From contig JANWKT010000034.1 in the NCBI GenBank assembly GCA_025451235.1, forward strand, positions 77,014 through 141,013: a DNA stretch of 64,000 nt. Direction: 5' to 3'. How positions within the stretch are numbered: the first letter of the stretch is position 1; every line of letters begins with the position of its first letter. Below, in pieces: positions 5,293-50,332 of this stretch. Made by a program: the position numbers and the translations under genes. The stretch comes from Flavobacteriales bacterium. GTDB lineage: Bacteria; Bacteroidota; Bacteroidia; CAIKAF01. The notes under the pieces were generated by a model. The model had not been told where the DNA came from. It searched no databases and was given only the letters and a program-made list of their open reading frames with translations.

Positions 5293-5330
5293 GGTCCGGG
5301 GTGCCGCTGCGCCCGGCAGGCCGAAAATCG
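5293..5330 (-). repeat. Short GC-rich fragment of the intergenic repeat family (see the 26.5, 38.5 and 50.2 kb copies)
   Basis: Its reverse complement, cggcctgccgggcgcagcggcaccccggaccc, aligns to the 'aagcctgcctggcgcagtacaggccgacgccc' portion of the 38.5 kb copy. It is GC-rich in an AT-rich background and lies immediately downstream of the S8 peptidase stop. Confidence 0.4.
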
Positions 5331-10879: not shown

Positions 10880-11602
10880 TCATTGCAATCCGTTGGTCCT
10901 TTTTAAAATTTCAATCAGGGTTCCTGCCTCATGTGATTTTGCTGAGGGAACCGGAAATTTGGCAAAGGTTTGGGTCCTTCCATGTTTAGAAGGATAACTA
11001 TATGTGATCTTGATCTCCAGCAATAATTCCGTTTTTGGCAATAGCTCAATATTTTCCATTTTGTTTTTCCTTCCGCCCCAGGTATGAAAAATACCCCCCA
11101 AATAATAACTTTTTTTTCCCAAAATGAGTTGAGGGTGATTTTTTCTTCGCTGTTGTACTTGCTTATACCTGCGTACCAAAAGAAATACGATCAGCAGGGC
11201 TACTGCCATATATACAAGGATCATTTCCGGATGGCCGAAACTTGAACTGGCAATTAATCCTGTAAACAGAAAAAACCCTCCTGCTACGATGGCCACTACA
11301 ATAGCCATCTTCGATTTTTTTTTCTGGTCACTCTTTAAATATTCTTCCCATTCCTGTTGATTAAAGGTCCATTCCACAAAATAATCCCTTTCATCCATGA
11401 ATTTTTGTAGTTGCCTGGATTGAACCATAGATACCACAAACCCAAGCAGAGAAATCACCAATACAAAGCTGGCAGGGACCATCAAAGATCCCGCATAGCT
11501 CATATCCTCCTCACTTACTACCAGTGCGGTAATCATTAAAGCAATCGTCATGAGGAATAATACCAGCCAAAAAAGAATGGATTTTCTGGGATAGTTGATC
11601 AT
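10880..11602 (-). CDS. Hypothetical membrane protein with four predicted TM helices
   Basis: ORF with hydrophobic segments. No recognisable catalytic motif. Confidence 0.45.
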   Translation of the reverse strand: MINYPRKSILFWLVLFLMTIALMITALVVSEEDMSYAGSLMVPASFVLVISLLGFVVSMVQSRQLQKFMDERDYFVEWTFNQQEWEEYLKSDQKKKSKMAIVVAIVAGGFFLFTGLIASSSFGHPEMILVYMAVALLIVFLLVRRYKQVQQRRKNHPQLILGKKSYYLGGIFHTWGGRKNKMENIELLPKTELLLEIKITYSYPSKHGRTQTFAKFPVPSAKSHEAGTLIEILKRTNGLQ

Positions 11603-11627
11603 GGGTTAAAGTTTGGGTAATTATAAT

Positions 11628-11658
11628 AAAAAAAACCGTCCCGGTTAAACCGGGACGG
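11628..11658 (-). terminator. Rho-independent terminator of the M43 peptidase gene
   Basis: On the minus strand a CCGTCCCGG-tttaa-CCGGGACGG hairpin is followed by TTTTTTTT. It sits 30 bp downstream of the stop at 11686. Confidence 0.7.
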
Positions 11659-11685
11659 CCTTCTCTTTATATTATTTGAGCAATA

Positions 11686-24062: not shown

Positions 24063-24723
24063 AAGACTCTTCATAATTTGTTTATTGTTATCCCAGGCAA
24101 GCTTATTCGGCCAGGTAATCAACGATTTTGGAACCTGGTGGGGGGCCGAGGTTCGTAAAACCTTTCTAAAGGATTTTAAAACAGGAGTAAGGATTGAAAC
24201 AAGGCTTAACGAAAATTCGGAGTTTGTAAAAAACTTTTACATCTCTCCATATTTCAAGTATTCTCCCTTAAAGTGGTTAACGCTTGGATTGAACTATCGG
24301 TTTGACAATCGGTATCAAAGAGCAGAAAAATATTTTAGTCAAAGACATAGGGTGGCTTTCGACCTTGAATTTACCTATGAAATAAAAAGGTTTGAACTGG
24401 GATACAGAAATCGGACCCAACTCCAATGGGAAAATGAATATAGCAGCTCCATAGAGTACCCTCTGGCATTTAACAGGAACCAGGTTTCTCTTAAATATAA
24501 ATGGCCCAATTTACCATTCAGTACGATGATCAGCGGAGAACTCTGGCTACCGATGGTGTTGAATACAGATCTGAGCAAATTCAGGCTGGTAGTTGGCCAG
24601 GAATACCGGCTCAAAGAAAAACATCGGTTCCAGTTACGTTTTATTTTTCAAACCGACCTGAACAGTACAGGCGAAATATGGAGGGATTATATTATATCCA
24701 CCCGGTACATATTTGCGTTTTAG
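24040..24723 (+). CDS. Outer-membrane beta-barrel-like protein (DUF2490-like)
   Basis: Signal peptide. Alternating aromatic/hydrophobic beta-strand periodicity. C-terminal ...YIFAF. Confidence 0.4.
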   Translation: MTMGTMIKRLFIICLLLSQASLFGQVINDFGTWWGAEVRKTFLKDFKTGVRIETRLNENSEFVKNFYISPYFKYSPLKWLTLGLNYRFDNRYQRAEKYFSQRHRVAFDLEFTYEIKRFELGYRNRTQLQWENEYSSSIEYPLAFNRNQVSLKYKWPNLPFSTMISGELWLPMVLNTDLSKFRLVVGQEYRLKEKHRFQLRFIFQTDLNSTGEIWRDYIISTRYIFAF

Positions 24724-26498
24724 TACGGGATGAATTTACGCAATACGATATATGCGGCTGGGTTTAATTCCACTGCATCTGCTTTTAAGCTATATTGATT
24801 CCCTTCGGAAGAAGTAATATAATTACCATTGGGCACTTTCATCGCAAATTTATTATTCCCCAAAAAACATACCTCAAAGCTGGTCGCCCTTAAAATATCC
24901 TTTTGATTGGCATAGATAAAACTGGTAGAATAATCATGAGTGCAAAATAAACCGGTCTTAACGGATCTTATATAGTAACCCCGACTAGCAAAATTGTATA
25001 TAAACTGAAATGTTTCATGGGGGGTGACCTGTTCAGGTACCGCATTTAAAAGCGTACTAACCGTATCAGAAGAGCTGACAAAGTGCGCCCTTAAAAATTC
25101 CACTGTAAAACATCCTTCCGTTAAGTCTTTGGGAGTGTAAAAAGATCCCTCTCCCTTTAGTTCTTTCGAATAGTCCAGATACGATATCAACAGATCATAA
25201 TTCTCTGGATACCGGGTTTTGCCCCAGATGGCCATATAGGTTTGTTGGTTCATTTGATCGTAGTGTAAAATCACTTTAGAATATTGCCAAACCTGAAAAA
25301 TATTTAAGCCAACCGTTCCCATCATAAAAACGCCGGTGAGCCATGCTTGATATCGTTTTTTGTTCCAGATAAAAGCCGCCATTGGAAAAACCAATAAGGC
25401 ATAGATGTCGATCATCGGCCTCATTCCATAACACCCTCCATACGACCATGCCCACCAGCAAGAAATAACATAAACAAAGACGGGTAGGATCACAATCACC
25501 GGGATAAAAAACTCTTTGACCTTTTTTCGTAACGAGAAGATTCCCAGTAAAGACATGATCATAACAGGCGTATATAACAACCATCCTTTTCGAAATGAAA
25601 ACAATACTTCAAGGATCATAGGCCTGTCCCAATAAAACTTTTCTCCCTGATAGGAATAATAGATCCAATTACCGGTAGCATACTTCCAATAGATGAGCTG
25701 AGGGATAATGGGAATTAAAAAAACTGCCAGTGCCAATAAAAGATGGTCATAACGGTCCTTTGCCAATCTCCATTTATCCAGCAATGTCTTTCGGTTATAT
25801 ATTCCATATAAAAATGGGAACAATGCTAATAGAATATTATTAGGTCGGATCAAAGCCAACATGGAAATACAGATGGCCATGCATAGTATATCGAATAGCT
25901 TTATCAATTGATGATACCGGATCGTAAAATAAATAAGCATACTCAACCACATGAAATTTACTCCATGCGTGAACAATGGCTCTCCATTGGTATACCAGGT
26001 TAAATTGGTAGCAGCTAGAACCAAGGTCAACGTAATGAGTGCTATGTGCATGGGGAAAAACCTCACCAATGCCTTCCCTAAAAAATACAATCCTATACAA
26101 ACATAGATCCAACAGCCAATCACCAAAATGAACTGGGTAGTTGAAGAATAACCATCATCTCCCCTCCCCTGTATATAAGCTACTCCCTGACCAACTGCAT
26201 AAAAAGGGAGGTACATATATGCCATTCCGATACTTCGTTTATTTACATGACGTCCGTCTTTGGTTTTTTGGGCCCAATAATGTTTAGGACAAGAAGAGGT
26301 AAAACTCAGGTCGTTACATTCAAAAACCGCGGTTACGAAACTATAATATTCAACCACGTCGCTATTGATGTGTTTCCTTTTGAAGGTTTGAAGGTGGAAG
26401 CTGAATGTTATAAATAGTGCTAATGCAAAAACGCAGTATAATACGAACGTCCGGTTCTGTTTTTTGAAGGTGGCGATATGCTGGGTGGTCTGTTCCAA
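24720..26498 (-). CDS. Polytopic membrane protein (ArnT/PMT GT39-like N-terminal region) with a C-terminal beta-trefoil/fascin-like soluble domain
   Basis: 592 aa. About 10 TM helices in the N-terminal 400 aa. The C-terminal ~150 aa has a repetitive beta-trefoil-like pattern (YYIRSVKTGLFCTHD..., NGNYITSSEGNQYSLKAD). Confidence 0.45.
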   Translation of the reverse strand: MEQTTQHIATFKKQNRTFVLYCVFALALFITFSFHLQTFKRKHINSDVVEYYSFVTAVFECNDLSFTSSCPKHYWAQKTKDGRHVNKRSIGMAYMYLPFYAVGQGVAYIQGRGDDGYSSTTQFILVIGCWIYVCIGLYFLGKALVRFFPMHIALITLTLVLAATNLTWYTNGEPLFTHGVNFMWLSMLIYFTIRYHQLIKLFDILCMAICISMLALIRPNNILLALFPFLYGIYNRKTLLDKWRLAKDRYDHLLLALAVFLIPIIPQLIYWKYATGNWIYYSYQGEKFYWDRPMILEVLFSFRKGWLLYTPVMIMSLLGIFSLRKKVKEFFIPVIVILPVFVYVISCWWAWSYGGCYGMRPMIDIYALLVFPMAAFIWNKKRYQAWLTGVFMMGTVGLNIFQVWQYSKVILHYDQMNQQTYMAIWGKTRYPENYDLLISYLDYSKELKGEGSFYTPKDLTEGCFTVEFLRAHFVSSSDTVSTLLNAVPEQVTPHETFQFIYNFASRGYYIRSVKTGLFCTHDYSTSFIYANQKDILRATSFEVCFLGNNKFAMKVPNGNYITSSEGNQYSLKADAVELNPAAYIVLRKFIPY

Positions 26499-26544
26499 AA
26501 TCTAGCGGTAAAGAAAAGAAATATTCAGTTCCCAGACATTCAAC

Positions 26545-26685
26545 CGGGTGCTGCCGGCATAAAGCTTGCCTGTCCAGGTGCATGCCAGGGCCCCCACCGG
26601 CCGAAGCGTTGACTTTACCCTGGGTGGGCAAGGCCCGCAGGTGGAGGCACCCGCAAGGCAGCCCGTGAAGTATAATAGAAGACCC
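26545..26685 (+). repeat. GC-rich intergenic repeat, copy A of a ~100-130 bp family
   Basis: About 65% GC in a ~40% GC genome. It aligns block-by-block with 38530-38632 (aagcYtgcctg..ggYgcag...ccgg(c)cga/gagcgttg...gtgaa(a/g)tataa.ag) and in reverse orientation with 50155-50275. It sits in a divergent promoter region. Confidence 0.6.
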
Positions 26686-26773
26686 GAAAAAACAGCTCCA
26701 AAAACCTAGAAATAAGTATAAAAACAAAGAATATTTTAACATTTGCATACTAGAATGGGTATTATTATTGTTA

Positions 26774-26781
26774 TAAATTTG
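26774..26781 (+). promoter_or_regulatory. Candidate -7 box (TAAATTTG) for the YwqK-like gene
   Basis: It matches the Bacteroidota TAnnTTTG consensus 20 bp upstream of the ATG at 26801. Confidence 0.25.
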
Positions 26782-26800
26782 AAACACCCTTTCTTATTCT

Positions 26801-27613
26801 ATGAGAAAATACATGCGATCTGTTTTTTTATTGTCCTTTTTATGGCTGGCAACCATGGTATGCCATGGCCAACCCACTAACCAGAAGGATGCTAACGGCA
26901 AAAAAACCGGGCTCTGGCAGACCAAATGGCCCAATGATTCATTAAAAAGTGAAGGTTATTATAAAGCCGGTAAAGCTATCGGGCTTTGGAAATATTGGTA
27001 TGAAACCGGAGAGATCATGGCATGGATGGAACACCTCACCGACGGAATTACTAGCAACTTTAAATTGTTCGATCCCTCAGGGCCAAGGATTGCTGAAGGC
27101 TTGTATGAAAAAGGTAAAAAAAATGGGACCTGGCATTATTATGGAGTGGATAGCAGCAAAGTAAGCGAAGAGACTTATATCAAAGGCGTAAAAACCGGGG
27201 AGGAAAAAGTATTTTATCCCAAAACCGGGAAACTATTTCAGACCACCTATTTTGCCGATGGAAAAAAAGAAGGATTGTGGAAACAGTTTTATGCGGACGG
27301 GTTTTTAAAAACAGATGGAAACCACAAGAACGATACCCTGGTTGGAAAGGTGATCTATTACCATCCTAATGGCAAGAAGAATCTGGAAGGGAATTATGTA
27401 AAAGGCCTCAGGCACGGAGAATTCTTTGTATATGATGAAAATGGGAAATTAGCCGAAACCCTCCATTATAAAATGGGTAAACTAGACGAAAAAGATTTGA
27501 AACGTCACTTAAATGGTGAAATAAAAGTTACCTTCCCCGAAGATGTGATCTACCAGGGGGGCTATGAATGGCTGAATCCTAATGGAAATGGTGGAGGCGG
27601 AGGCGGGTATTGA
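26801..27613 (+). CDS. Secreted MORN-variant repeat protein (YwqK-family antitoxin-like repeats)
   Basis: Signal peptide. Multiple 'G.W..(W/Y)Y.(N/T)G' repeats (GLWQTKWPNDSLKSEGYYKAGKAIGLWKYWYETGE...). It ends with an NGNGGGGGGY tail. Confidence 0.65.
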   Translation: MRKYMRSVFLLSFLWLATMVCHGQPTNQKDANGKKTGLWQTKWPNDSLKSEGYYKAGKAIGLWKYWYETGEIMAWMEHLTDGITSNFKLFDPSGPRIAEGLYEKGKKNGTWHYYGVDSSKVSEETYIKGVKTGEEKVFYPKTGKLFQTTYFADGKKEGLWKQFYADGFLKTDGNHKNDTLVGKVIYYHPNGKKNLEGNYVKGLRHGEFFVYDENGKLAETLHYKMGKLDEKDLKRHLNGEIKVTFPEDVIYQGGYEWLNPNGNGGGGGGY

Positions 27614-38137: not shown

Positions 38138-38434
38138 CTAACCTCCATAGGGGCCCTGTTCCGAAAGTGCTGGCAGGTTGTTATTGATATAGACCTGAAA
38201 TAGCTCATAAAGGAAAGGATTTACCTGGTTTCCGGCCTGACCCAAAAACTCTACGCAAAACTTGCCAGGTCCGATCCTCTCCAGAATATCCTGATCGGTC
38301 TTGATTACCGCATGCACCACGGCTCCCATTTCATTAAAATCCTGTATTTTTTCTAAAAGAAGGAGAGATGCTGCACCTGTTTTAGGGATCACGATGTATA
38401 TTACATCCAAGTGTGAAATAATTTCAGCTTTCAT
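38138..38434 (-). CDS. Small hypothetical protein (98 aa)
   Basis: ORF with no recognised motif. Confidence 0.35.
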   Translation of the reverse strand: MKAEIISHLDVIYIVIPKTGAASLLLLEKIQDFNEMGAVVHAVIKTDQDILERIGPGKFCVEFLGQAGNQVNPFLYELFQVYINNNLPALSEQGPYGG

Positions 38435-38529
38435 CGAGGTAAGAAGTTTGAGTAGTAATTATATAAAGATATACTTTTTACCCAAATAAATCCCATAGCC
38501 TTAAAGCTCCCCCCAAGTACCCAGCAAGT

Positions 38530-38632
38530 AACAAGCCTGCCTGGCGCAGTACAGGCCGACGCCCTGCCTGCCGGAGCGTTGGTCTGACCATAGGCGGATA
38601 GGCAGCATCCCGGAACTGTGAAATATAAGGAG
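38530..38632 (+). repeat. GC-rich intergenic repeat, copy B
   Basis: It aligns with copy A (26545-26685) and, in reverse complement, with copy C. It lies between two minus-strand genes, immediately downstream of the lipoprotein cassette. Confidence 0.6.
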
Positions 38633-38681
38633 TACCCTAAGGTCACGGATACAAACGATCCTATGGAAGCGGATGCCAACG

Positions 38682-39515
38682 TTAAACAAAAAGAACTACG
38701 ATGGCAATGATGGATAAAATAATGGCGAGGATGCCCAAAATAAGAGAAATAGTTACCCTGCTATCCTTAGTTCTTAAACCCGCCAGCGCCATAATAGAAC
38801 CAATGAACCCTTCTATTAAAGAAATACAACCAATGATAAATCCTATGACGTTGAGGGGGCTCCCAAAAAAACTAAAAATAAAGGCAAGCGTGGCTGAGAA
38901 CACAGCCAAAATAGTTACTACCAATATGGCCACTACAAAACCTCCTTGATCAGAGACTGGTCTTTGATCTGAATTAGTGGAAGGATTCGGACGATAAAAA
39001 TCACCGTTTTTTAAATGAATAACATCTACTCTTGAACTTGACACGACATACGTAGGACCATCAGGGTTGTTACATTTTTTATACTTGATCTCAGTATCCG
39101 TAATTTCGGAAACAAGTACTTCTATTTGTGTTCCATCCTTTAAAACGAGTAGATCACACTCCTCCGCATCTAATGCATTTTTTTTATCAACCGAAAGCGA
39201 ATTTCTTTGGATTGATTCCTTTCTAACAGTTCCATGTCCTGACTTCTCAGTCATTTTTTCCGTAATGAGCAGGTCATCCTTTAAAGAGTCGGTAGTAACT
39301 TGTGGACTTGCGGGTACAGAAAGTATGGCCGTTTCCAATTTGTTTTTTTTAATCAGATCCGAACGATGGTGATGGTCTCTCTTTGCATGGGATGTTTCGA
39401 TATGATATCCTGGTCGGTATCTTCTTTTTTCGATGGTAAGAGAACATGAAAAGAATGAAAAAGAAACCATTATCAAAAGAAAAACAGAAAATATTTTGTG
39501 TGGGGTACGTATCAT
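38682..39515 (-). CDS. Cassette paralog 4: lipoprotein with a post-lipobox 'EKRRYRPGYH' motif, a His/charge-rich linker, a two-Cys 'ECD...NG..I.....EI....IKYKKC..P.GP' domain and a C-terminal glycine-zipper multi-TM domain (DUF4190-like?)
   Basis: Lipobox FFSCS. The motif TIEKRRYRPGYH. A HAKRDHHHRSD segment. ECDLLVLKDGTQIEVLVSEITDTEIKYKKCNNPDGP. Three to four C-terminal TM helices with GxxxG/AxxxG spacing. Confidence 0.7.
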   Translation of the reverse strand: MIRTPHKIFSVFLLIMVSFSFFSCSLTIEKRRYRPGYHIETSHAKRDHHHRSDLIKKNKLETAILSVPASPQVTTDSLKDDLLITEKMTEKSGHGTVRKESIQRNSLSVDKKNALDAEECDLLVLKDGTQIEVLVSEITDTEIKYKKCNNPDGPTYVVSSSRVDVIHLKNGDFYRPNPSTNSDQRPVSDQGGFVVAILVVTILAVFSATLAFIFSFFGSPLNVIGFIIGCISLIEGFIGSIMALAGLRTKDSRVTISLILGILAIILSIIAIVVLFV

Positions 39516-39545
39516 CTCAGGTCTGTATACATTATTAAATCTGAT

Positions 39546-40367
39546 TTATGAAAATGCAATAATCATTCCAACAATAGAAAAAAGAAGGGCGCAAAATCCT
39601 AAAATAAGTATGAGTTTCACCTTGATGCTTTTTTCATCTCTTAATGCCCTAAAACCCATAATGATCGAAGTAGCGGAAAACAATGCGGCAAAAATGCAAA
39701 TAATAAAACCGATGGTATATAAAGGAAGAATAAAAAAAGACAGCATAAAGCCAATAAGAGCCAGGCTAAGTGCTATGATACTTATAATAAATCCGGCAGA
39801 TATATATTTTTTTGTTACGGGTTTATGTTCTTTAATAGGTTTATTGGGTTTAGGAGCAAAAGTATCACCGTTCTTCAGCAAAATATTCAATACATTATCC
39901 AATGAAAGATAATAAATGGGGCCCTCGGGCTCACCACATTTCCTGTACTTCACTTCGGTTTCCGAAATCTCAACGATCAAGGCCTGGATCTGATAACCAT
40001 TGATCATCACAATAACATCGCATTCTGCCGGTGGTGGATCCGTTTCAACCTTGTGTTCATTTAAAAAAGAGGCGCGATCCTGGTAGCGTGTCTTTGGTTC
40101 AGAAGAAGAACTGGTGATCACAGGATCAGATGGATCAACGGAGTCGTGTGCAGGAATGCACTGGGATCCTTTTAAAATAACTACATTTTCGGATGGGAGT
40201 TCATTTCCGGTGGTATTTAGTTTTTGTATGGTGCGATTCTTCATTCGGTGATGAACAATATCCATATGGTAGCCAGGTCGGTATTTTCTTTTCTCAAAAC
40301 TAACAGAACAAGAACTCAGACCAACGACCAGGATCAAAAGAAATGCTCCTAAAATCAATCTGTTCAT
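39546..40367 (-). CDS. Cassette paralog 3 of the KR(R/K)YRPGYH lipoprotein family
   Basis: Lipobox LSSCS. SFEKRKYRPGYHMDIVHH. ECDVIVMINGYQIQALIVEISETEVKYRKCGEPEGP. A C-terminal glycine-zipper TM domain. The start is taken at the internal Met (MNRLILG). Confidence 0.7.
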   Translation of the reverse strand: MNRLILGAFLLILVVGLSSCSVSFEKRKYRPGYHMDIVHHRMKNRTIQKLNTTGNELPSENVVILKGSQCIPAHDSVDPSDPVITSSSSEPKTRYQDRASFLNEHKVETDPPPAECDVIVMINGYQIQALIVEISETEVKYRKCGEPEGPIYYLSLDNVLNILLKNGDTFAPKPNKPIKEHKPVTKKYISAGFIISIIALSLALIGFMLSFFILPLYTIGFIICIFAALFSATSIIMGFRALRDEKSIKVKLILILGFCALLFSIVGMIIAFS

Positions 40368-40413
40368 TTTATAAAATATTATTTCTCCCATTTTCTCTCA
40401 CTTATTCTATTAC

Positions 40414-41199
40414 TCAATTCTTTTTTGCAGGGGTGGTTACTCCCAGGATAATGCCTATAATTCCCAATACCACTCCAATTGCTAAAAGAATGATCCCAAT
40501 TAATAACAATAAAATACCGCCCCAGCCCCCTCCTATCGAAGACAGACATAAAGCCAGGCCAGCAGCCAACACAACAATGGCTATCCCTCCAAACACCCAT
40601 GCCATTGCTCCCCGTGTACGGCGACCCTTTTCATGTTCTGAAGGCTCATACATCATTCGGTATTCTTTGTAAGGATCAATCACGCTGCCGTTCTTGAGCT
40701 TAATATCCCTGATCCTGTTCAAAGTGATAGGTGTTGGCTCGGCTTGATTATCTCCACAGTTTTTATAGGTAAGGGTACCTCCCCTTATCTCAATACCAGT
40801 AGCACGAATGATTTTACCATTCACTAGCCTGATCTCATCACATTCCTCATCGAGGTGTTGTTGGGTGATATCAAGAGAAGATAATACCTGTTTGGGTTTT
40901 TTATTTTTTTTCTCCTCCTTAGAATGATTGGTTCTCTGCTCCTGCCATTCATCGTTCCTGATATCCAAATCGACATTGGCAGAATGTTCTATGGTGGAAA
41001 CGGCAAACGTTGAAATGGTATCTTTTCTATCCTTCCTGCGTTCTTTTTGTACATGATATTCGAAAGATCTTTTTTTACTCACCATCTCTATATGGTATCC
41101 CGGTCTATATCTCCTTTTGTCGAAGCTAATAGAACAACTCGACAGTAGCATCAAAGAAATGAGAAGTAGAATTAACTGGGTAGGGTTTTTCATGTTCAA
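40414..41199 (-). CDS. Cassette paralog 2 of the KR(R/K)YRPGYH lipoprotein family
   Basis: Lipobox LSSCS. SFDKRRYRPGYH. ECDEIRLVNGKIIRATGIEIRGGTLTYKNCGDN. A C-terminal glycine-rich TM domain (GGWGGILLLLIGIILLAIGVVLGIIGIILG). It starts 3 bp after the stop of the small lipoprotein gene. Confidence 0.7.
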   Translation of the reverse strand: MNMKNPTQLILLLISLMLLSSCSISFDKRRYRPGYHIEMVSKKRSFEYHVQKERRKDRKDTISTFAVSTIEHSANVDLDIRNDEWQEQRTNHSKEEKKNKKPKQVLSSLDITQQHLDEECDEIRLVNGKIIRATGIEIRGGTLTYKNCGDNQAEPTPITLNRIRDIKLKNGSVIDPYKEYRMMYEPSEHEKGRRTRGAMAWVFGGIAIVVLAAGLALCLSSIGGGWGGILLLLIGIILLAIGVVLGIIGIILGVTTPAKKN

Positions 41200-41202
41200 T
41201 TT

Positions 41203-41610
41203 TTATTTTGTTCCGACAAATTCAAAATCCACTCCGGTACTGTCAAAATAACTACAACGCATATGGGTATACTCCACCATCGGTGTAACATTGGCACTAT
41301 AATACAAATTCGGATCGAAGGGGGTTTCCATATCCAGGGTAAGAAAGCTGGTGCCTCCATAAGCAAATCTGCCAATCGCCAGGTCCGTCATATAATAATC
41401 AGGATTCCCGCTTGAAGTAAAAAGGATGTCTACTTTATTTGCTCCGTTTTGAGTAATTGTGCATGTTCCATTCCCGGAATTAACCGGCAGGCTACCTCCT
41501 TCATAGGTGCCGGTGTATTCACCAATCACCATAGCAGGTGAAGTATCAAATTTACATCCAATAAGCAAAGGTGAAGTCAATAAAAGGATCAGCAGCGTCT
41601 TTTTCATCAT
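41203..41610 (-). CDS. Small 'CKFD' lipoprotein B, paralog of the 42631-43047 protein
   Basis: Lipobox LIGCKFD. Motifs shared with the other copy (TSSGNPDYY / TSTGNPTFY; C-terminal ...FEFVGTK / FEFDGKR). Confidence 0.65.
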   Translation of the reverse strand: MMKKTLLILLLTSPLLIGCKFDTSPAMVIGEYTGTYEGGSLPVNSGNGTCTITQNGANKVDILFTSSGNPDYYMTDLAIGRFAYGGTSFLTLDMETPFDPNLYYSANVTPMVEYTHMRCSYFDSTGVDFEFVGTK

Positions 41611-41711
41611 TTTAGTTTGGGTGCATTTGTAAATATAGATATTCTTAAAAACATAGCCATCAATTCTATTTAAAATATATAAGGTTGAGCCCCCCGGATC
41701 ATAAAGTCCAA

Positions 41712-42626
41712 TTATAAAAACACGATCATAATGGCCAAGGATGCCAATAATAATGCAATAAAACCCATTACAATCGCCAGAATAACTTTAACCGACTTTC
41801 CACTTCTCAATCCTGAAAAGCCCAATGAAAAACTGATGATGGATAAAAAAATGGTGGCAACCGCAATTCCAAATCCAATCCCTCCCATTGGGTTAGCCAA
41901 AAAACTAAAAACAAAAGCAATCAGGGCCAAGGATAATGAGATAATACTTAAAGCAAATCCGGCCTTACCTTTTCGTACCGGCCCCTCGTGGGGATTAATA
42001 TCCGGCAGATACCTATAGCCTGAATATCTGAGCAGCAAAGCAATGATCGCCATGATCAACGCTAGTCCTATGATAATAGCCCCTAAAATAATGTTCACTC
42101 CATACCAACCTCCTATTAAAGAGAACATCAAAATGCTCCCAATCAACAATGCAAAGGCCACACCCCCGGTGATCCAGGCCCAAACTCTTCTGCGTCTTTT
42201 ATTGTCGCCTAATGTTTCTTTGGGAGATGCACCCTGACCGACTTGGGTCGCTGATTTATTTTCTTGTTCTGGAGATATGGATCTTTCTTCCTTTTCATGT
42301 AGATCTATGCTGATATCCTCCCATTCAATATCCTCCGTATAAGTTTTTAGGACGGTCCTTGTTGCCGGGGTTGAATCTTTCAACTCTTCCTTGGTGGCGA
42401 TATCGGTGGGCTGCTCTGATTTCTGTTTTGTTTTCTCCATCCACTCATTATCTGGATTGTGTTTTACCTCATGATGCTTTGTTTTATTTACGTTTGGGCT
42501 TACCTGAACATAATACCCGGGCCGGTACCTTCTTTTTTCAACCTGTATCGAGCAAGAACATAACAATGCACAAAATGTCCAGCATACAAGTCGGATAAGC
42601 GAAATATTAAATAGTTGGTTCTTCAT
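41712..42626 (-). CDS. Cassette paralog 1 of the KRRYRPGY lipoprotein family, with a duplicated C-terminal glycine-zipper TM domain and no ECD-type domain
   Basis: Lipobox LCSCS. VEKRRYRPGYY. A long acidic/basic linker. An RRRR anchor, then two tandem TM modules (…LLRYSGYRY… and …FSGLRSGKSVKV…). The start is placed at the Met at 42626 (MKNQLFN...), 4 bp after the stop of the upstream small lipoprotein gene. The tracked ORF extends 18 codons further 5' into that gene. Confidence 0.65.
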   Translation of the reverse strand: MKNQLFNISLIRLVCWTFCALLCSCSIQVEKRRYRPGYYVQVSPNVNKTKHHEVKHNPDNEWMEKTKQKSEQPTDIATKEELKDSTPATRTVLKTYTEDIEWEDISIDLHEKEERSISPEQENKSATQVGQGASPKETLGDNKRRRRVWAWITGGVAFALLIGSILMFSLIGGWYGVNIILGAIIIGLALIMAIIALLLRYSGYRYLPDINPHEGPVRKGKAGFALSIISLSLALIAFVFSFLANPMGGIGFGIAVATIFLSIISFSLGFSGLRSGKSVKVILAIVMGFIALLLASLAIMIVFL

Positions 42627-42630
42627 GCTA

Positions 42631-43047
42631 TTATCTTTTACCATCAAATTCAAATGAGTAAATCGAATCTCCGTATGCACAATCTACCGTCCACTTTTTC
42701 CCTGAATAGGGATTAACCTCATATACATTGGCTGTAAAACTAATGTTAGAGGTAGATAATTCAATTTGAAACCAACTGATCCCAAAGCCATAATTCGCTC
42801 TTTTTACGGTAAGGCCATTCAGATAAAAGGTAGGGTTACCTGTTGAAGTAAGGACCATATTTAATTTACCATCGCCCGTTTCTGTAAATACCAGTTCACC
42901 ATCAGCATATGGAAAAGGTATGCCATTGGTGCTATAAAAATTACCATAATAGGTTCCTTCTGCAGTGTGGTCAAACTTACAACTGACAAAAAAGACAGAT
43001 GAGAAGAGTACAGTAACTATCAGAAAATTTTTCATAGAGACATTCAT
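42631..43047 (-). CDS. Small 'CKFD' lipoprotein A (138 aa), the first gene of the cassette
   Basis: Signal peptide/lipobox FVSCKFD. A beta-rich ~115-aa mature domain. It is paralogous to 41203-41610. Confidence 0.65.
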   Translation of the reverse strand: MNVSMKNFLIVTVLFSSVFFVSCKFDHTAEGTYYGNFYSTNGIPFPYADGELVFTETGDGKLNMVLTSTGNPTFYLNGLTVKRANYGFGISWFQIELSTSNISFTANVYEVNPYSGKKWTVDCAYGDSIYSFEFDGKR

Positions 43048-45572: not shown

Positions 45573-46844
45573 TTAAGTCGACGGAATGATCTTTCCGGTT
45601 ACCTCGCCAAATCCAATTCTTATATCCCCTTTTTTACAACTGGCTTTCATGATCACTGTATCGCCATCCTGCAGAAATTTTCTTTCTGAGCCATCGTTGA
45701 GGGTAATGGGTTTGGTACCTCTCCAGGTAAGTTCGAGCATGCTGCCGTAGCTATTGGGTTTAGCACCGCTAATCGTTCCACTGGCACATATATCGCCTAT
45801 TCGCATGTTACAGCCACCAATGGTATGGTGAGCCAGTTGCTGATTAATATTCCAATACAAATATTTAGTATTCGATTCGCAAACCAATGTTGCCTCACCT
45901 TTATCTGATTTAATAAATACTTCGAGGTTGATATCGTAATTTTTGTTCCCTTCAAATTTTAAATAAGGCAATACAGGAGGATCCTGAACCGGACCTTCGC
46001 ATTTAAATGCTTGCAATGCATCCATGGTAACCACCCAGGGTGAAATGCTGGAAGCAAAATTCTTGCTTAAGAAGGGTCCCAGAGGAACATATTCCCAACT
46101 TTGAATATCTCTTGCACTCCAATCATTAAAAATAACCATCCCAAAAATATGTGATTCCGCCTCAGTAGTTGGTATCGAAGTTCCCATTTCATTTCCACGA
46201 CCAATAATAAATGCCATCTCCAATTCGAAATCCAGTAATTTGGAAGGACCGAAAACGGGTGTGTCTGCTCCTTCGGGCATGGTTTGTCCTTTGGGGCGTT
46301 GAATCGGTGTACCTGAAATAACAATGCTGGATGCCCGGCCATGATAACCTACCGGAAGATGCTTCCAATTAGGCAATAGGGCATCACCATTTGGACGGAA
46401 CATTTTACCCACATTGGTTGCGTGTTCCATACTTGAATAAAAATCGGTATAATCCCCAATTTGTAAAGGCAGGAGCATCTCAACCTCTATCATGGGCACC
46501 AATGCTTCCTTCAGGTCTTCCTTGTTCGCTCTTAGTTCGGTATTTTCTTCTCTCAATAGTTCAGAAATTCTGTTCCGGGTAAGATTCCAATAAGCTTTAC
46601 CTAAACCAATGAATTTATTCAATGACTTTGACTTAAAAACATTCTCATTCAAGAAAAGATTATCCAAATATCCTTTTCTGTATAAAAAGGCGAGATCCAG
46701 CACATGTTCTCCAATGGCTACTCCTATCCTGGGTTTTTTTGTGCCGTATTTAAAGATCCCATACGGAAGATTCTGAATGGGAAAATCACTGCCGGCTGGA
46801 ATATTCACCCAGCTTTTGAGATCTGGTGAAATCGTTTTATCCAT
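45573..46844 (-). CDS. fahA: Fumarylacetoacetase (fumarylacetoacetate hydrolase)
   Basis: 423 aa. N-terminal FAH domain (PYGIF...GVAIGEHVLDL). C-terminal FAA-hydrolase catalytic fold with its metal-binding Asp/Glu pattern. Confidence 0.9.
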   Translation of the reverse strand: MDKTISPDLKSWVNIPAGSDFPIQNLPYGIFKYGTKKPRIGVAIGEHVLDLAFLYRKGYLDNLFLNENVFKSKSLNKFIGLGKAYWNLTRNRISELLREENTELRANKEDLKEALVPMIEVEMLLPLQIGDYTDFYSSMEHATNVGKMFRPNGDALLPNWKHLPVGYHGRASSIVISGTPIQRPKGQTMPEGADTPVFGPSKLLDFELEMAFIIGRGNEMGTSIPTTEAESHIFGMVIFNDWSARDIQSWEYVPLGPFLSKNFASSISPWVVTMDALQAFKCEGPVQDPPVLPYLKFEGNKNYDINLEVFIKSDKGEATLVCESNTKYLYWNINQQLAHHTIGGCNMRIGDICASGTISGAKPNSYGSMLELTWRGTKPITLNDGSERKFLQDGDTVIMKASCKKGDIRIGFGEVTGKIIPST

Positions 46845-46899
46845 GAGATCATTTTAAACTGAACTACAAACCTATTATTTTTTTCGGCATTTTTCAGAA

Positions 46900-46935
46900 A
46901 AAAAAAGCCGTCCCGGTTGAACCGGGACGGCTTTT
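46900..46935 (-). terminator. Rho-independent terminator downstream of secDF
   Basis: On the minus strand GCCGTCCCGG-ttcaa-CCGGGACGGC is followed by TTTTTTTTT. The stem is almost identical to the M43 gene terminator at 11637. Confidence 0.7.
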
Positions 46936-46954
46936 TTCAATAACAACCTCTTAT

Positions 46955-49900
46955 TTATTTTTTTGCTCCTGGTAACAGGCTCTTATCCTTCTTCAAGTCA
47001 ACAACGATCGGAGTTGCTATGAAAATAGAAGAGTAAGTACCAATGAGGATACCGATCAGCATCGCAAATGCAAATCCTTTGATACCATCACCTCCAAAGA
47101 GGAAACTGATGATGATCACAAAGAATACGTTCAACGACGTGTTCAGGGTTCTACCCAAGGTACTGTTCAATGCTGAATTGATCAGTTCTTTCATATTTCC
47201 CTTTTTACCCTCACCTATATATTCCCTGATACGGTCGAAGATAATTACAGTATCGTTCATCGAATACCCCATAACGGTAAGTACCGCCGCAATAATGGCC
47301 TGGTCGATCTCCAAGGAGAACGGCAGGATACCATCAAAGATGGAGAATACCGCAAGTACGACGACAACGTCATGCACCAAGGCAACCAAGGCCCCCAATC
47401 CAAACTGCCATCCCTTGAATCGGAACAACACATATAGGAATATCATGAGCAATGAGAGTACAATCGCGTAAATGGATTTGAATTTTACATCACGGGCAAC
47501 CGTTGGACCTACCTTGTAGCTTTCCACCAATCCGTAGCTGTTGTCTTTATCCACAAAATCCTTCAATGTTGGTGGTGTCTCATAAAACGGAGCACAAGCT
47601 TCATACAACATTTTTTCAATACCTTTCTCTACGGTGGTATCATTTTTATCTACCATGTATTTGGTCATGATCTTGATCCGATCGGTAGAACCATAATATT
47701 TAACCACAGGGGCCGATCCGAATTTAACTTCTAAAGCAGACGCTATATCGGAAGTAGTAAACTTACTATTGTTATCAAAAACCACCGTATACGACCTACC
47801 ACCTTTCAAGTCAATACCCAGGTTAAACCCTTTGGTAAAGAAAGAGAAGATACCTATAACCGTAATGATGGCTGAAACAATAAAGAAGATCTTTCTTTTT
47901 CCAACGAAGTTGAACTTAGGACTGCGCATGAAATTCTCGGTCAGCTTGGTAGAGAACGTAATGTTCCAGTTTCTTTTTAACTGCCATTCGAAAATAAGGC
48001 GTGTAATAAAGATGGAAGAGAAAGTAGAAGTAAGGATACCTACAAATAATACTACCGCAAAACCTTTTACCGGTCCAGCTCCAAATATCATCAGAATAAG
48101 GGTAATGATACCCAATGTAATGTTGGCATCTATAATCGCTGAATATGCTTTTTTATATCCATCTTCGATGGCGATCTTCAAACGTTTTCCATTCCGTAAC
48201 TCCTCCTTCACCCTTTCGAATATCAATACGTTGGCATCAACCGACATACCAATGGTGAGTACCAAACCGGCTATACCAGGTAAGGTTAAAGTAGCACCCC
48301 AGGCCGCCAGAGATCCAATGAGGAAGAACATGTTGGTAAATAATGCGATATCGGCTGTTATTCCTGCTTTTCCATAGAAGAAGGCAATGTAGGCCAGGAT
48401 CACTATGAAGGCAATGAGCAATGAAAAAAGACCTGCCCTGATCGCTTTCTTTCCTAAAGAAGGTCCAACAATGGCTTGCTCCACAATGGTAGCGGGTGTT
48501 GGCAATTTACCTGCTTTTAAAACAGAAGCCAGGGTTTTTGCTTCATCACTGGTAAAGTTTCCGGTAATGGTTGAAATACCTCCTTTGATCTGTCCTTCTA
48601 CTGTAGGATATGAATATACTTTATCATCGAGTACGATGGCAATTGATCTTCCACGACCTCCGCCCTGAGGGGCGTTTCTGCGGGTAATTTCAGCCCATGC
48701 TTCAGCTCCATCCCCATTCATCTTCATGGTCACCATGAAACCTCCTTTGGTAGGGTCTTGGCTTTCTTCCGCATCAATAATTACATCCCCTTCTAATGCC
48801 GGCTTACCTCTGAGTGTTCTCAGCGCTACTAACCCAAAGTCCTGTGCATTTTCGTTCAATGATTTTTTGGTCCAGAGAAGTTTGAGATCTTTTGGTAACA
48901 ATTTTACCACATCCGGCATTCTCAAATATTTATTTACCAAAGCTGTATCGCTGGATCTTGAGATACCAACCAATGGTCCTGGAGCTAAATAATCTTTTTG
49001 GTCTTCACCTGTATAGGAAACATATTGCATCCTGGCCCATAGCGGATGGAGTTTTTCCTGCTCCGCCATATTCATACCCATCATATCGGTAGAATCCCTC
49101 TTAAGTGAATCCGGCTTTAGACTATCTGCTTTAAGGCTGTCTCCGGGATTTAATGTTAGCTGAAGAGAATCTCCACCAACAGAATCTGTTTCCAATGTAT
49201 CACTACCACCCACGATATCAATTTTTGCCAGGTATTTGTCTACATTATCGAGGAATTTATATGCTTCTGCATTTTCGTATGTCTCGTAGAACTCCAATTT
49301 GGCAGTAGCCTGCAATAGCTCCTGCACACGTGTAGGATCTTTTACACCGGGAAGTTCCACCAGGATCCGGTTGGTACCTTCCAACAATTGTATATTGGGC
49401 TGGGTTACCCCAAACTGGTCAATACGGGCATTCAATACTTCGTATGTACGGAAGATCGCATCCTTGGCTTCTTTTTTCAGGATCTCGATCACTTCCTCAT
49501 TCTTCATACTTTGTTTGATGAGGCTTTGCTCTTTATGACCAAAGATGCCAGGACTGGATAATTTTCCGTTGGGTCGCAGTATCAGGAACTCCTGTACAAA
49601 CAGGTCAACATAATTTTTCTGAGTAGAACTCTGTAATTCTGTTGCTCTTACCAATGCTTGTGTGAATGCACTATCGGTACTGTTATTGGCCATTGCCTTT
49701 AACAGGTCGGGAATAGAAACCTCCAGGGTTACGTTCATCCCACCTTTCAGGTCAAGTCCCAGGTTAATTTCCCTTTTCTTACATTCATCGTAGGTGTATT
49801 TTACTATACCCAGGTTGAATACAACTTTACCTTTCATTGAATCGAGCATGGCTTGCTCCAATTGAAGGCTGTCTCCCGCCTCTGCACGTACTTTACTCTC

Positions 49901-49993
49901 TACCCTGTTTGTAACGAATGTAAAAGATAAGTGCCATATACAAGCCAGTGCAAGTAAAATTGCAAACACCTGTATCGCTCCTTTATTCTGCAT
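46955..49993 (-). CDS. secDF: Fused protein-export membrane protein SecDF
   Basis: 1012 aa. SecD periplasmic domain plus 6 TM, then SecF plus 6 TM. Conserved 'GLDLKGG' motifs occur in both halves. Confidence 0.95.
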   Translation of the reverse strand: MQNKGAIQVFAILLALACIWHLSFTFVTNRVESKVRAEAGDSLQLEQAMLDSMKGKVVFNLGIVKYTYDECKKREINLGLDLKGGMNVTLEVSIPDLLKAMANNSTDSAFTQALVRATELQSSTQKNYVDLFVQEFLILRPNGKLSSPGIFGHKEQSLIKQSMKNEEVIEILKKEAKDAIFRTYEVLNARIDQFGVTQPNIQLLEGTNRILVELPGVKDPTRVQELLQATAKLEFYETYENAEAYKFLDNVDKYLAKIDIVGGSDTLETDSVGGDSLQLTLNPGDSLKADSLKPDSLKRDSTDMMGMNMAEQEKLHPLWARMQYVSYTGEDQKDYLAPGPLVGISRSSDTALVNKYLRMPDVVKLLPKDLKLLWTKKSLNENAQDFGLVALRTLRGKPALEGDVIIDAEESQDPTKGGFMVTMKMNGDGAEAWAEITRRNAPQGGGRGRSIAIVLDDKVYSYPTVEGQIKGGISTITGNFTSDEAKTLASVLKAGKLPTPATIVEQAIVGPSLGKKAIRAGLFSLLIAFIVILAYIAFFYGKAGITADIALFTNMFFLIGSLAAWGATLTLPGIAGLVLTIGMSVDANVLIFERVKEELRNGKRLKIAIEDGYKKAYSAIIDANITLGIITLILMIFGAGPVKGFAVVLFVGILTSTFSSIFITRLIFEWQLKRNWNITFSTKLTENFMRSPKFNFVGKRKIFFIVSAIITVIGIFSFFTKGFNLGIDLKGGRSYTVVFDNNSKFTTSDIASALEVKFGSAPVVKYYGSTDRIKIMTKYMVDKNDTTVEKGIEKMLYEACAPFYETPPTLKDFVDKDNSYGLVESYKVGPTVARDVKFKSIYAIVLSLLMIFLYVLFRFKGWQFGLGALVALVHDVVVVLAVFSIFDGILPFSLEIDQAIIAAVLTVMGYSMNDTVIIFDRIREYIGEGKKGNMKELINSALNSTLGRTLNTSLNVFFVIIISFLFGGDGIKGFAFAMLIGILIGTYSSIFIATPIVVDLKKDKSLLPGAKK

Positions 49994-50050
49994 AATGCTT
50001 TACTTTTTTAACTTAAAACGTTTATAAAAAAATGAACGCAAAGATATAGG

Positions 50051-50141
50051 TTCAAACCGATATAACAAATTATGTTTGAGGTTTGAAGGGTTTGAAGTCT
50101 GAGGGGTTTGAGGCTGAAACCGTGCTTCAAACCTCATACAT
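50051..50141 (+). promoter_or_regulatory. Structured leader with five copies of GGTTTGA(A/G)G, including a 17-bp imperfect inverted repeat
   Basis: ATGTTTGAGGTTTGAAG (50072-50088) pairs with CTTCAAACCTCATACAT (50125-50141) with 1 mismatch. Further GGTTTGA(A/G)G units lie between them and at 50051 (reverse orientation). It is located in the secDF / FG-GAP divergent region. Confidence 0.4.
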
Positions 50142-50154
50142 TGCTTTTCAGCCC

Positions 50155-50275
50155 AATAGACACAATCAACCCGGCAAGGCAGAAGCCAACACGCCGGCAG
50201 GCAGGCTGCGGCCCCAGTTGGGATGGACTGCCCCTTGTGAGTAAAGCGAAGCACAGGAAAAGCCGCCCAGCATAG
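50155..50275 (-). repeat. GC-rich intergenic repeat, copy C (reverse orientation)
   Basis: Its reverse complement 'cgcagcctgcctgccggcgtgttggcttctgcc...' aligns with 'cgccctgcctgccggagcgttggtctgacc...' of copy B. Confidence 0.55.
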
Positions 50276-50332
50276 CATTTGGACGGCTTGGTATTTATAT
50301 CTATTTTTGAAGTATTGGCATTTCCCAAAAAA

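Follow-up and report, generated by a model that had tools for sequence, protein, structure and literature searches.

The window analysed here (the whole stretch of 64,000 nucleotides of Flavobacteriales DNA) encodes T9SS-sorted proteins, SecDF, Fur, RelA and further core genes; homologues of its SecDF at 50–63% identity are labelled Flavobacteriales or Bacteroidia MAGs. GC content of the window is 0.401 (80-nt sliding mean 0.401, sd 0.063), and three intergenic islands rise above it, with 80-nt GC peaks of 0.725 at 26520–26701, 0.688 at 38488–38637 and 0.662 at 50135–50288. Outside these islands 80-nt GC never exceeded 0.61 anywhere in the window, and a 60-nt GC of at least 0.70 was reached in only 3 of the 27 intergenic regions of at least 60 nt, i.e., those holding the segments termed copies A, B and C (next highest value, 0.58). 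A first-pass annotation, made by reading the sequence, had described GC-rich segments in DNA of about 40% GC, and this was borne out (GC 0.645 for A, 0.602 for B, 0.595 for C, and 0.763 for a fourth, short segment, D). The open reading frames it considered spurious were present (26362–26787; 38431–38679 and 38501–38689; 50000–50278 and 50134–50346) and gave no Pfam hit at E up to 0.1. A reading as replication origin, terminus or Ter site was dropped, since GC skew in the window merely tracks gene strand.

Copy A (26526–26690, plus strand) opens with the left block AGTTCCCAGACA at 26526 and contains a core hairpin at 26589–26635 (plus), taken from MFE structures, with stem CCCACC/GGGTGG set within GGCC/GGCC and the loop GGCCGAAGCGTTGACTTTACCCT. 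Copy B (38516–38641, plus strand) has the left block AGTACCCAGCAAG, matching at 14/15 positions a member found outside the window (L067, below); its core hairpin (38563–38605, plus) pairs the arms CCTGCCTGCC / GGCGGATAGGCAG around the 20-nt loop GGAGCGTTGGTCTGACCATA, in the same register and with the same loop length as the hairpin of L067 and the perfect hairpin of a second outside member, L004. A 14-nt direct repeat, 27 nt apart, also lies within B. The core of copy C (50138–50288, minus strand) spans 50171–50205 (minus) and consists of the 20-mer CCTGCCTGCCGGCGTGTTGG (50205–50186) followed by a shifted hairpin, CCGGC-N17-GCCGG, the stem register being unlike that of B, L004 and L067. A covariance model (R1) built from the five members A, B, C, L004 and L067 scored 81 bits for A (26559–26678), 98 bits for B (38530–38631) and 58 bits for C (50237–50138), each of these copies being a training member of the model.

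In the alignment the blocks of the family run from a left block (AGTWCCYAGAC..AAGYYTGC) through a variable segment to the core hairpin, and through a second variable segment to a right block. The boundaries first drawn for A and B were extended slightly, with AGTWCCYAGAC beginning at 26526 and 38516, respectively. The right block, GTGAARTATAA, had been listed as a terminal block common to the copies; it is indeed present in A and B, but is missing from C, and taken on its own has a p of about 0.08. The variable segment 3′ of the core hairpin often holds another, non-homologous hairpin, as in A and L067. A small peptide (MKYN/MKYK) encoded at the right block was judged unlikely from the A–B indels and the absence of the block in C and L067, and a likeness of GTTGGCTTCTGCCTT within C to a Cas13b repeat was taken as coincidence.

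Copy A is situated between divergent genes for a 592-aa membrane protein (24720–26498, minus) and a MORN-repeat protein (26801–27613, plus). Copy B lies between the stop of a 277-aa gene (38682–39515, minus) and the promoter of a conserved 98-aa gene (38138–38434, minus) preceding fur, and is antisense to both neighbours. Copy C lies between the divergent promoters of secDF (46955–49993, minus) and an FG-GAP/T9SS gene (plus; real start about 50333). Thus the contexts first proposed were right in part: divergent for A and C and tandem on the minus strand for B and D, but no copy lies between convergent genes. The copies do occur in both orientations (A and B plus, C minus), also relative to the flanking genes, and their unrelated gene contexts, together with the presence of L067 and L004 in other low-GC contigs, uphold the proposal of dispersed rather than gene-specific regulatory sequence. 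Promoter boxes of the flanking genes (TTTG-N19-TAnnTTTG, the Bacteroidota type) are conserved in relatives, and each stands between island and gene; for C, the conserved −7 boxes are TATCTTTG at 50046 (minus) and TATTTTTG at 50302 (plus). The intervening −33/−7 boxes place the islands upstream of promoters rather than within leaders, and a 5′ UTR or riboswitch was rejected on these grounds. As for a promoter of the element itself, TAnnTTTG did not recur exactly at any consistent position; boxes with one mismatch occur at 38627 (minus) and 26708 (minus). No terminator-like sites were detected at the islands, and given this and the location of A and C between divergent genes, a terminator role was also rejected.

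Homology of A with B and of B with C is shown by sequence comparison. The A–B local alignment gave z of 4.1–5.4, was equalled by 1 of 300 shuffles, and corresponded to an nhmmer E of 0.013 over about 105–120 nt. The B–C alignment gave z of 7.6–8.5 and centres on a 20-nt core, CCTGCCTGCCGGnGyGTTGG, identical at 18/20 positions, which, even at a tolerance of three mismatches, was never matched when the window was shuffled 100 times. Direct A–C similarity was not significant (local alignment against shuffles, z 0.2), and A and C are joined solely via B; outside the core the flanks reached p of only 0.03–0.2, and the copies are about 70% alike. The similarity among intergenic segments noted at first pass is thus real for A–B and B–C, but weaker than described and not significant for A–C. 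Fragment D (5293–5330, minus; GC-rich, just past the stop of an S8 peptidase gene), put forward as a fourth copy, did not hold up: it consists of a 14/15-nt match to B, of which about 0.1 are estimated to be expected by chance in the window, it was missed by model R1 at E up to 10, its fold was not significant, and the 15-mer common to B and D pairs differently at each place. From its sequence, D is probably a chance match outside the family.

The module common to the family is a hairpin with a 7–10 bp stem CCTGCC/GGCAGG (in longer form CCTGCC(TGCC)/GGCAGG(CAGG)) and a loop of about 20 nt beginning GGnGCGTTGG, accompanied by a weak block on either side. Four of the five members (A, B, L004, L067) retain the hairpin, with 81% of alignment cells paired compared to 25–43% in slid controls. 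When the A stem (CCCACC/GGGTGG) is set by eye against the family stem, two pairs are changed on both sides (U-A to C-G, G-C to A-U); RNAalifold and cmsearch put the A stem in another register, in which those two positions are not scored as compensatory, and the covariation score is modest (equalled by 18/500 shuffles). Whole islands gave MFE z values on the two strands of −0.55/−0.02 (A), −0.24/+0.62 (B) and +0.58/+0.97 (C); across islands and sub-elements the values lay between −0.9 and +2.0, apart from the plus-strand B core at −2.2. Whole-island RNA structure was discarded accordingly, as the folds are no better than those of dinucleotide shuffles on either strand. In Rfam 15 only a tRNA passed the gathering threshold in the window, and at E up to 10 over A, B and C there was just a 20-bit miRNA match, a chance-level score. 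A known RNA family was excluded, with nothing relevant at gathering or at E up to 10 in the window, L048, L004 or L055 (L048 and L055 being loci from relatives, below), as was an origin from rRNA or tRNA fragments, for which sub-threshold hits were absent. The suggestion of a structured-RNA family was not borne out as first made: a single hairpin is conserved, with weak covariation, and the whole islands fold like shuffles and have no Rfam match.

An exact scan for the core in 185,579 GTDB species genomes returned 47 hits, almost all of which come from high-GC genomes and are chance matches; neither among these genomes nor in JGI metagenomes did any contig stretch hold more than one exact core, and no organism appeared twice among the species-genome hits. 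One hit, L004, comes from a Flavobacteriales genome (UBA11591, 40% GC) and is a perfect hairpin, CCTGCCTGCC followed by the 20-nt loop GGCGCGTTGGCCATCACTCA and then GGCAGGCAGG, upstream of tRNA-Arg. There (L004:1700–1800, minus) a 41-nt hairpin alone splits a 19/20-nt copy of the first 20 nt of tRNA-Arg, the gene itself lying 48 nt downstream, and the layout reads GGTCGCGTA, hairpin, CTCAGCTGGA. From the sequence this configuration looks like insertion into a partial tRNA duplicate. The second member, L067, is a low-GC hit (35% GC) from the JGI metagenome scan and lies between methyltransferase-like and glycosyltransferase-like genes, co-oriented with both. Beyond the 20-mer with which it was fished, L067 resembles B in the left block (AGTACCTAGACAAGT versus AGTACCCAG-CAAGT, 14/15 nt, p about 0.03). 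Core identity of B to both L067 and L004 is 19/20, closer than that of B to its genomic sibling A, which fits subfamilies moving between genomes. The repeat reading was to fail if a search found no further copies and similarity fell to background; copies were found elsewhere, and the A–B and B–C similarities survived statistics.

Relatives were represented by eight loci on seven contigs, with SecDF 72–78% identical or the 592-aa protein 48–60% identical to that of the window; six loci, about 20 kb each, are syntenic with the window, and two are short contigs. Model R1 found zero copies in the 154 kb of relatives despite conserved gene order. A C orthologue in L056 (the CCCTGCCGGATGGCGTTTAGC hairpin) was seen by eye only, received no support from R1, and was set aside. 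As the relatives are distant (neutral intergenic DNA is saturated) and no family copy was detected at the orthologous sites, spread within the lineage of the window is suggested. The centres of the same intergenic regions in relatives have GC of 50–74% and are unalignable across them, with the flanking promoters conserved. Site C holds an unrelated island of 0.69 GC in L048 (L048:8562–8688) and milder GC bumps in L050, L051, L052 and L056; site B holds a different island in L048 (L048:21102–21258); and site A is empty in L054 and occupied by about 400 nt of GC-rich DNA in L055 (L055:1440–1870). Three of the four strong islands in relatives were at the three sites of the window, which make up about 3 of the roughly 45 intergenic regions covered. 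This suggests that the shared slots are insertion hot spots or need some GC-rich element or spacer, and that a small set of slots is shared by distinct families of GC-rich elements moving between them.

The element at site B of L048 and part of that at site A of L055 are homologous to one another (nhmmer E 2e-7) and unrelated to A, B and C. The segments L048:21112–21240 and L055:1659–1800 share a Y-shaped fold of 35 pairs, 11 of them compensatory and none broken (MFE z −3.7 and −9.1), with conserved blocks CAGGGATGGMAGCAAGTAGC and ACTACTGCGAACAGCCCGGT; no match was found in Rfam or among viral contigs. In L048 this element precedes fur; in L055 it is flanked by the MORN and membrane-protein genes. 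From the modelled fold we regard it as a candidate new structured RNA or ssDNA element.

Hallmarks of known mobile elements were looked for in the A/B/C family. Terminal inverted repeats were not found in A, B, C or L067 with their flanks, where the only pairs were internal stems and an 8-nt AT-rich pair around A. Target-site duplications were likewise not found (left-versus-right flank alignments, p 0.20–0.90 in each of these four copies). Apparent repeats (AGTACCC at both ends of B, AT-rich sequence around A) were rejected as not significant. The tag GTAG/CGTC was absent at the foot of the stem, where the flanks read GCC|CCTGCC, GTA|CCTGCC and CTC|CCTGCC, and bases left of the element are not conserved (TATTC, CCCCA, CTCAG). 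Pfam scans of the window ORFs showed no transposase, RAYT or integrase, nor were these present in the annotated relatives, and no parent element was found in the 185,579 species genomes or in JGI metagenomes. Origin from phage or plasmid was discarded, as viral contigs, INPHARED phages and PLSDB plasmids gave chance-level matches at most. Hence the likening of the segments to MITEs was not sustained (neither terminal inverted repeats nor target-site duplications, near-identical copies absent), and that to REP sequences fared no better (GTAG/CGTC tag absent, no near-identical copies, no transposase in the window).

REP and BIME sequences of Proteobacteria are mobilised by RAYT, an IS200/IS605-type Y1 transposase, and REP and IS200/IS605-derived elements have neither terminal inverted repeats nor target-site duplications. 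The A/B/C family is like them in consisting of short, GC-rich, imperfectly palindromic intergenic units lacking both features, in both orientations, with several hairpins and short blocks per island in mosaic order; the REP unit is an imperfect palindrome of 20–40 nt, and the core hairpin measures about 40–43 nt in B, L004 and L067. It differs in the loop of about 20 nt, far larger than REP loops, in its copies, three in the 64 kb covered and about 70% identical, whereas REP copies, of which a genome has tens to hundreds, are near-identical, in the absent GTAG/CGTC tag with no RAYT seen among window ORFs, and in the Bacteroidota host. Non-autonomous (palindrome-associated) elements derived from IS200/IS605 are similarly 100–200 nt, hairpin-dependent, intergenic and dispersed; they bear hairpins at both ends and insert beside a fixed tetra- or pentanucleotide, while here one conserved hairpin is seen, followed in A and L067 by a second, non-homologous one, and no parent IS was found for the family. 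With MITEs (Correia, RUP, Nezha) the family shares a length of 100–200 nt, a non-coding intergenic character and presence or absence among sister lineages, and departs from them in that terminal inverted repeats and target-site duplications were not found and the copies are few and diverged. Multi-copy sRNA families include Qrr in Vibrio, and paralogous sRNA families are reported in Bacteroides; these too are diverged intergenic paralogues within a genome with one conserved stem-loop, but for A, B and C no promoter box at a consistent position, no terminator-like site, no significant folding of whole islands and no synteny with relatives was found. STAR elements of Staphylococcus aureus are short GC-rich intergenic repeats of an AT-rich genome whose loci vary between species, and are built of a recurring 14-bp direct repeat, T(G/A/T)TGTTG(G/T)GGCCC(C/A), with spacers of at least 40 bp (PMC3532100). 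The family resembles STAR as a GC-rich intergenic repeat in an AT-rich genome, with a 14-nt direct repeat in B, but its conserved unit is a hairpin rather than a tandem-interspersed direct repeat and it belongs to another phylum; the likeness drawn here is one of description.

We assign A, B and C to the known kind of small dispersed intergenic repeats; placement among REP sequences, MITEs or structured RNAs was not demonstrable. Our preferred explanation, held tentatively and with less than even confidence, is that they are copies of an old, selfish, low-copy, hairpin-based repeat that spread by copy-and-paste, like REP or IS200/IS605 derivatives. The element would be a GC-rich, non-coding unit of about 100–165 nt in which the hairpin is the sole well-conserved module. 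Spread would act on DNA: a single-strand (HUH/Y1) transposase would recognise the hairpin of the non-autonomous repeat and mobilise it in trans, in the manner of REP or IS200/IS605-derived elements. Copies would be lost except from those few long intergenic slots, distal to promoters, in which additional DNA is tolerated. We think that the repeat is mobile and served by a trans-acting enzyme, and infer no dedicated cellular function for it, save possibly that of separating neighbouring promoters. The non-syntenic, orientation-free occurrence of L004 and L067, the insertion-like layout of L004, the greater likeness of B to outside copies than to A, and the patchy distribution (none found in 154 kb of relatives) favour a mobile repeat; that neither terminal inverted repeats nor target-site duplications were found is in keeping with the IS200/IS605-REP mode of spread and speaks against MITEs of the classical type. 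Counting against a mobile repeat are the failure to find an enzyme or parent element, the few and strongly diverged copies (about 70%), unlike those of recently active repeats, and the mixed orientation within 24 kb (A and B plus, C minus) with no strand bias of the sort expected from single-strand transposition. The single conserved hairpin, where IS200/IS605 derivatives have two, and the missing REP tag also weigh against it. Even the nearest relatives are too distant for empty sites to be mapped with nucleotide precision, which we likewise count against a mobile repeat, and high GC has persisted in what would be old, neutral copies within an AT-rich genome, which hints at selection.

The main rival to the mobile repeat is a small RNA gene family. 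A, B and C could be paralogous genes for small regulatory RNAs, or for some other transcribed structured RNA, with the loop GGnGCGUUGG as interaction site and variable helices around it; we consider this possible, but doubt it. GC-rich islands in AT-rich genomes are a classic mark of structured RNAs, stem and loop sequence have been preserved in three genomes, conservation is block-wise with variable inserts, and G-U pairs arise in the listed orientation only. To these may be added the plus-strand fold of the B core (z −2.2), the TATAyTTCAC block common to A and B on the minus strand, which is like a Bacteroidota −7 box, and the unrelated, clearly structured element held at equivalent sites in relatives. 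Set against this, MFE z for whole islands was not significant on either strand, sub-elements doing no better, there was no intrinsic terminator and no TAnnTTTG box at a consistent position, Rfam gave no match even at E up to 10, syntenic sites in relatives were without conservation, covariation was weak (18/500 shuffles reaching the score), and the stem of C is in a different register. It is improbable, in our estimation, that the conserved unit works instead as double-stranded DNA, i.e., as a dyad-symmetric site for protein binding or recombination upstream of promoters (an operator, insulator or recombinase target), with arms CCTGCCTGCC / GGCAGGCAGG 20 bp apart and a palindromic centre such as TGGCCA or TGGTC-N-GACCA. 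Orientation relative to genes would then be immaterial, the stems are nearly pure Watson-Crick, the loop centres of L004 and B are themselves palindromic, the same intergenic slots are GC-rich in several genomes, and A, B and C are all upstream of −33/−7 boxes and not within 5′ UTRs. A 20-bp spacer between 10-bp GC-rich arms is atypical of operators, however; A and C have degenerate arms, the neighbouring genes include no candidate for a binding protein, and the flanking genes (secDF/FG-GAP, the fur operon, MORN/membrane protein, tRNA-Arg, glycosyltransferase) share no function.

Equally improbable, in our view, is that the islands are filler: unrelated GC-rich sequence that evolves fast (for example foreign-DNA relics, or the product of local mutational or gene-conversion bias), with a likeness that represents shared composition. 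The unalignable GC-elevated centres (50–74%) between conserved flanking promoters in relatives, the non-significant A–C comparison, the chance-level status of D and the p of only 0.03–0.2 for flanks outside the core are as expected from filler; the 18/20 B–C core with the same hairpin in L004 and L067 is far beyond composition (0/100 shuffles, z about 8), the A–B alignment spans about 105 nt, and mutation bias at 40% GC should erode GC rather than build it up. A broader alternative, which we regard as rather unlikely, would unite A, B and C with the unrelated islands of relatives, the Y-shaped element among them, in an as yet undescribed class of structured, GC-rich cassettes able to replace one another. 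These would be small RNA genes or insulators of promoters, occupying fixed inter-promoter positions in this Flavobacteriales lineage and swapped by a targeted mechanism.

Should the mobile-repeat explanation be true, a small repeat family built on a hairpin would here be described for the first time from uncultured low-GC Flavobacteriales, in which such repeats are, to our knowledge, essentially uncatalogued. The islands produce spurious ORFs and false N-terminal extensions, and they mark hypervariable intergenic slots that could possibly serve as strain markers. The sharing of slots with unrelated structured elements in relatives is the lead most worth following. An example of the false extensions is the membrane-protein call L055:1620–3632, of 670 aa compared to about 590 aa in orthologues, whose extra N-terminus runs through the GC-rich island. 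Close by (L055:1551–1587, minus), the 17-nt GAACAGCGAAGCGAGCC is nearly identical to the unpaired 5′ segment in the hairpin-ribozyme model of Rfam; the score was 18 bits against a gathering threshold of 65 (E 0.53), and this is probably chance.

Some further features of the window were noted. The 98-aa ORF at 38138–38434 (minus), directly upstream of fur-STAS-purA and with no Pfam hit, is a genuine, conserved gene: L052 has a 101-aa ORF with 60% identity to it in the equivalent position. The gene calls for L048 include no counterpart between the HTH gene and fur. On the other side of B, 38682–42680 is a run of minus-strand genes without assigned function, mostly without Pfam hit, and four of them (38682–39515, 39546–40391, 40414–41199 and 41712–42680) share a 30-nt N-terminal block at 80–83% identity, which suggests that they are paralogues; the matching cluster varies in gene number and size among relatives. 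Just upstream of the secDF −33 box, 50060–50133 contains a run of short repeats of TCAAAC/CAAACC type together with an inverted partner (GGTTTGAGGC/GCTTCAAACC); L056 has a partial echo of it (CCTTGAACCCCTTGGCCCCCTTGAACCC), and the run may represent a regulatory repeat. Two hairpins 35 kb apart (11624–11668 and 46898–46942) are 84–91% identical, are flanked by A/T runs and read AAAAAAAACCGTCCCGGTTRAACCGGGACGGC(T)TTT; each follows a minus-strand gene (10880–11602 and 45573–46844, respectively), and they look like bidirectional terminators that share sequence.
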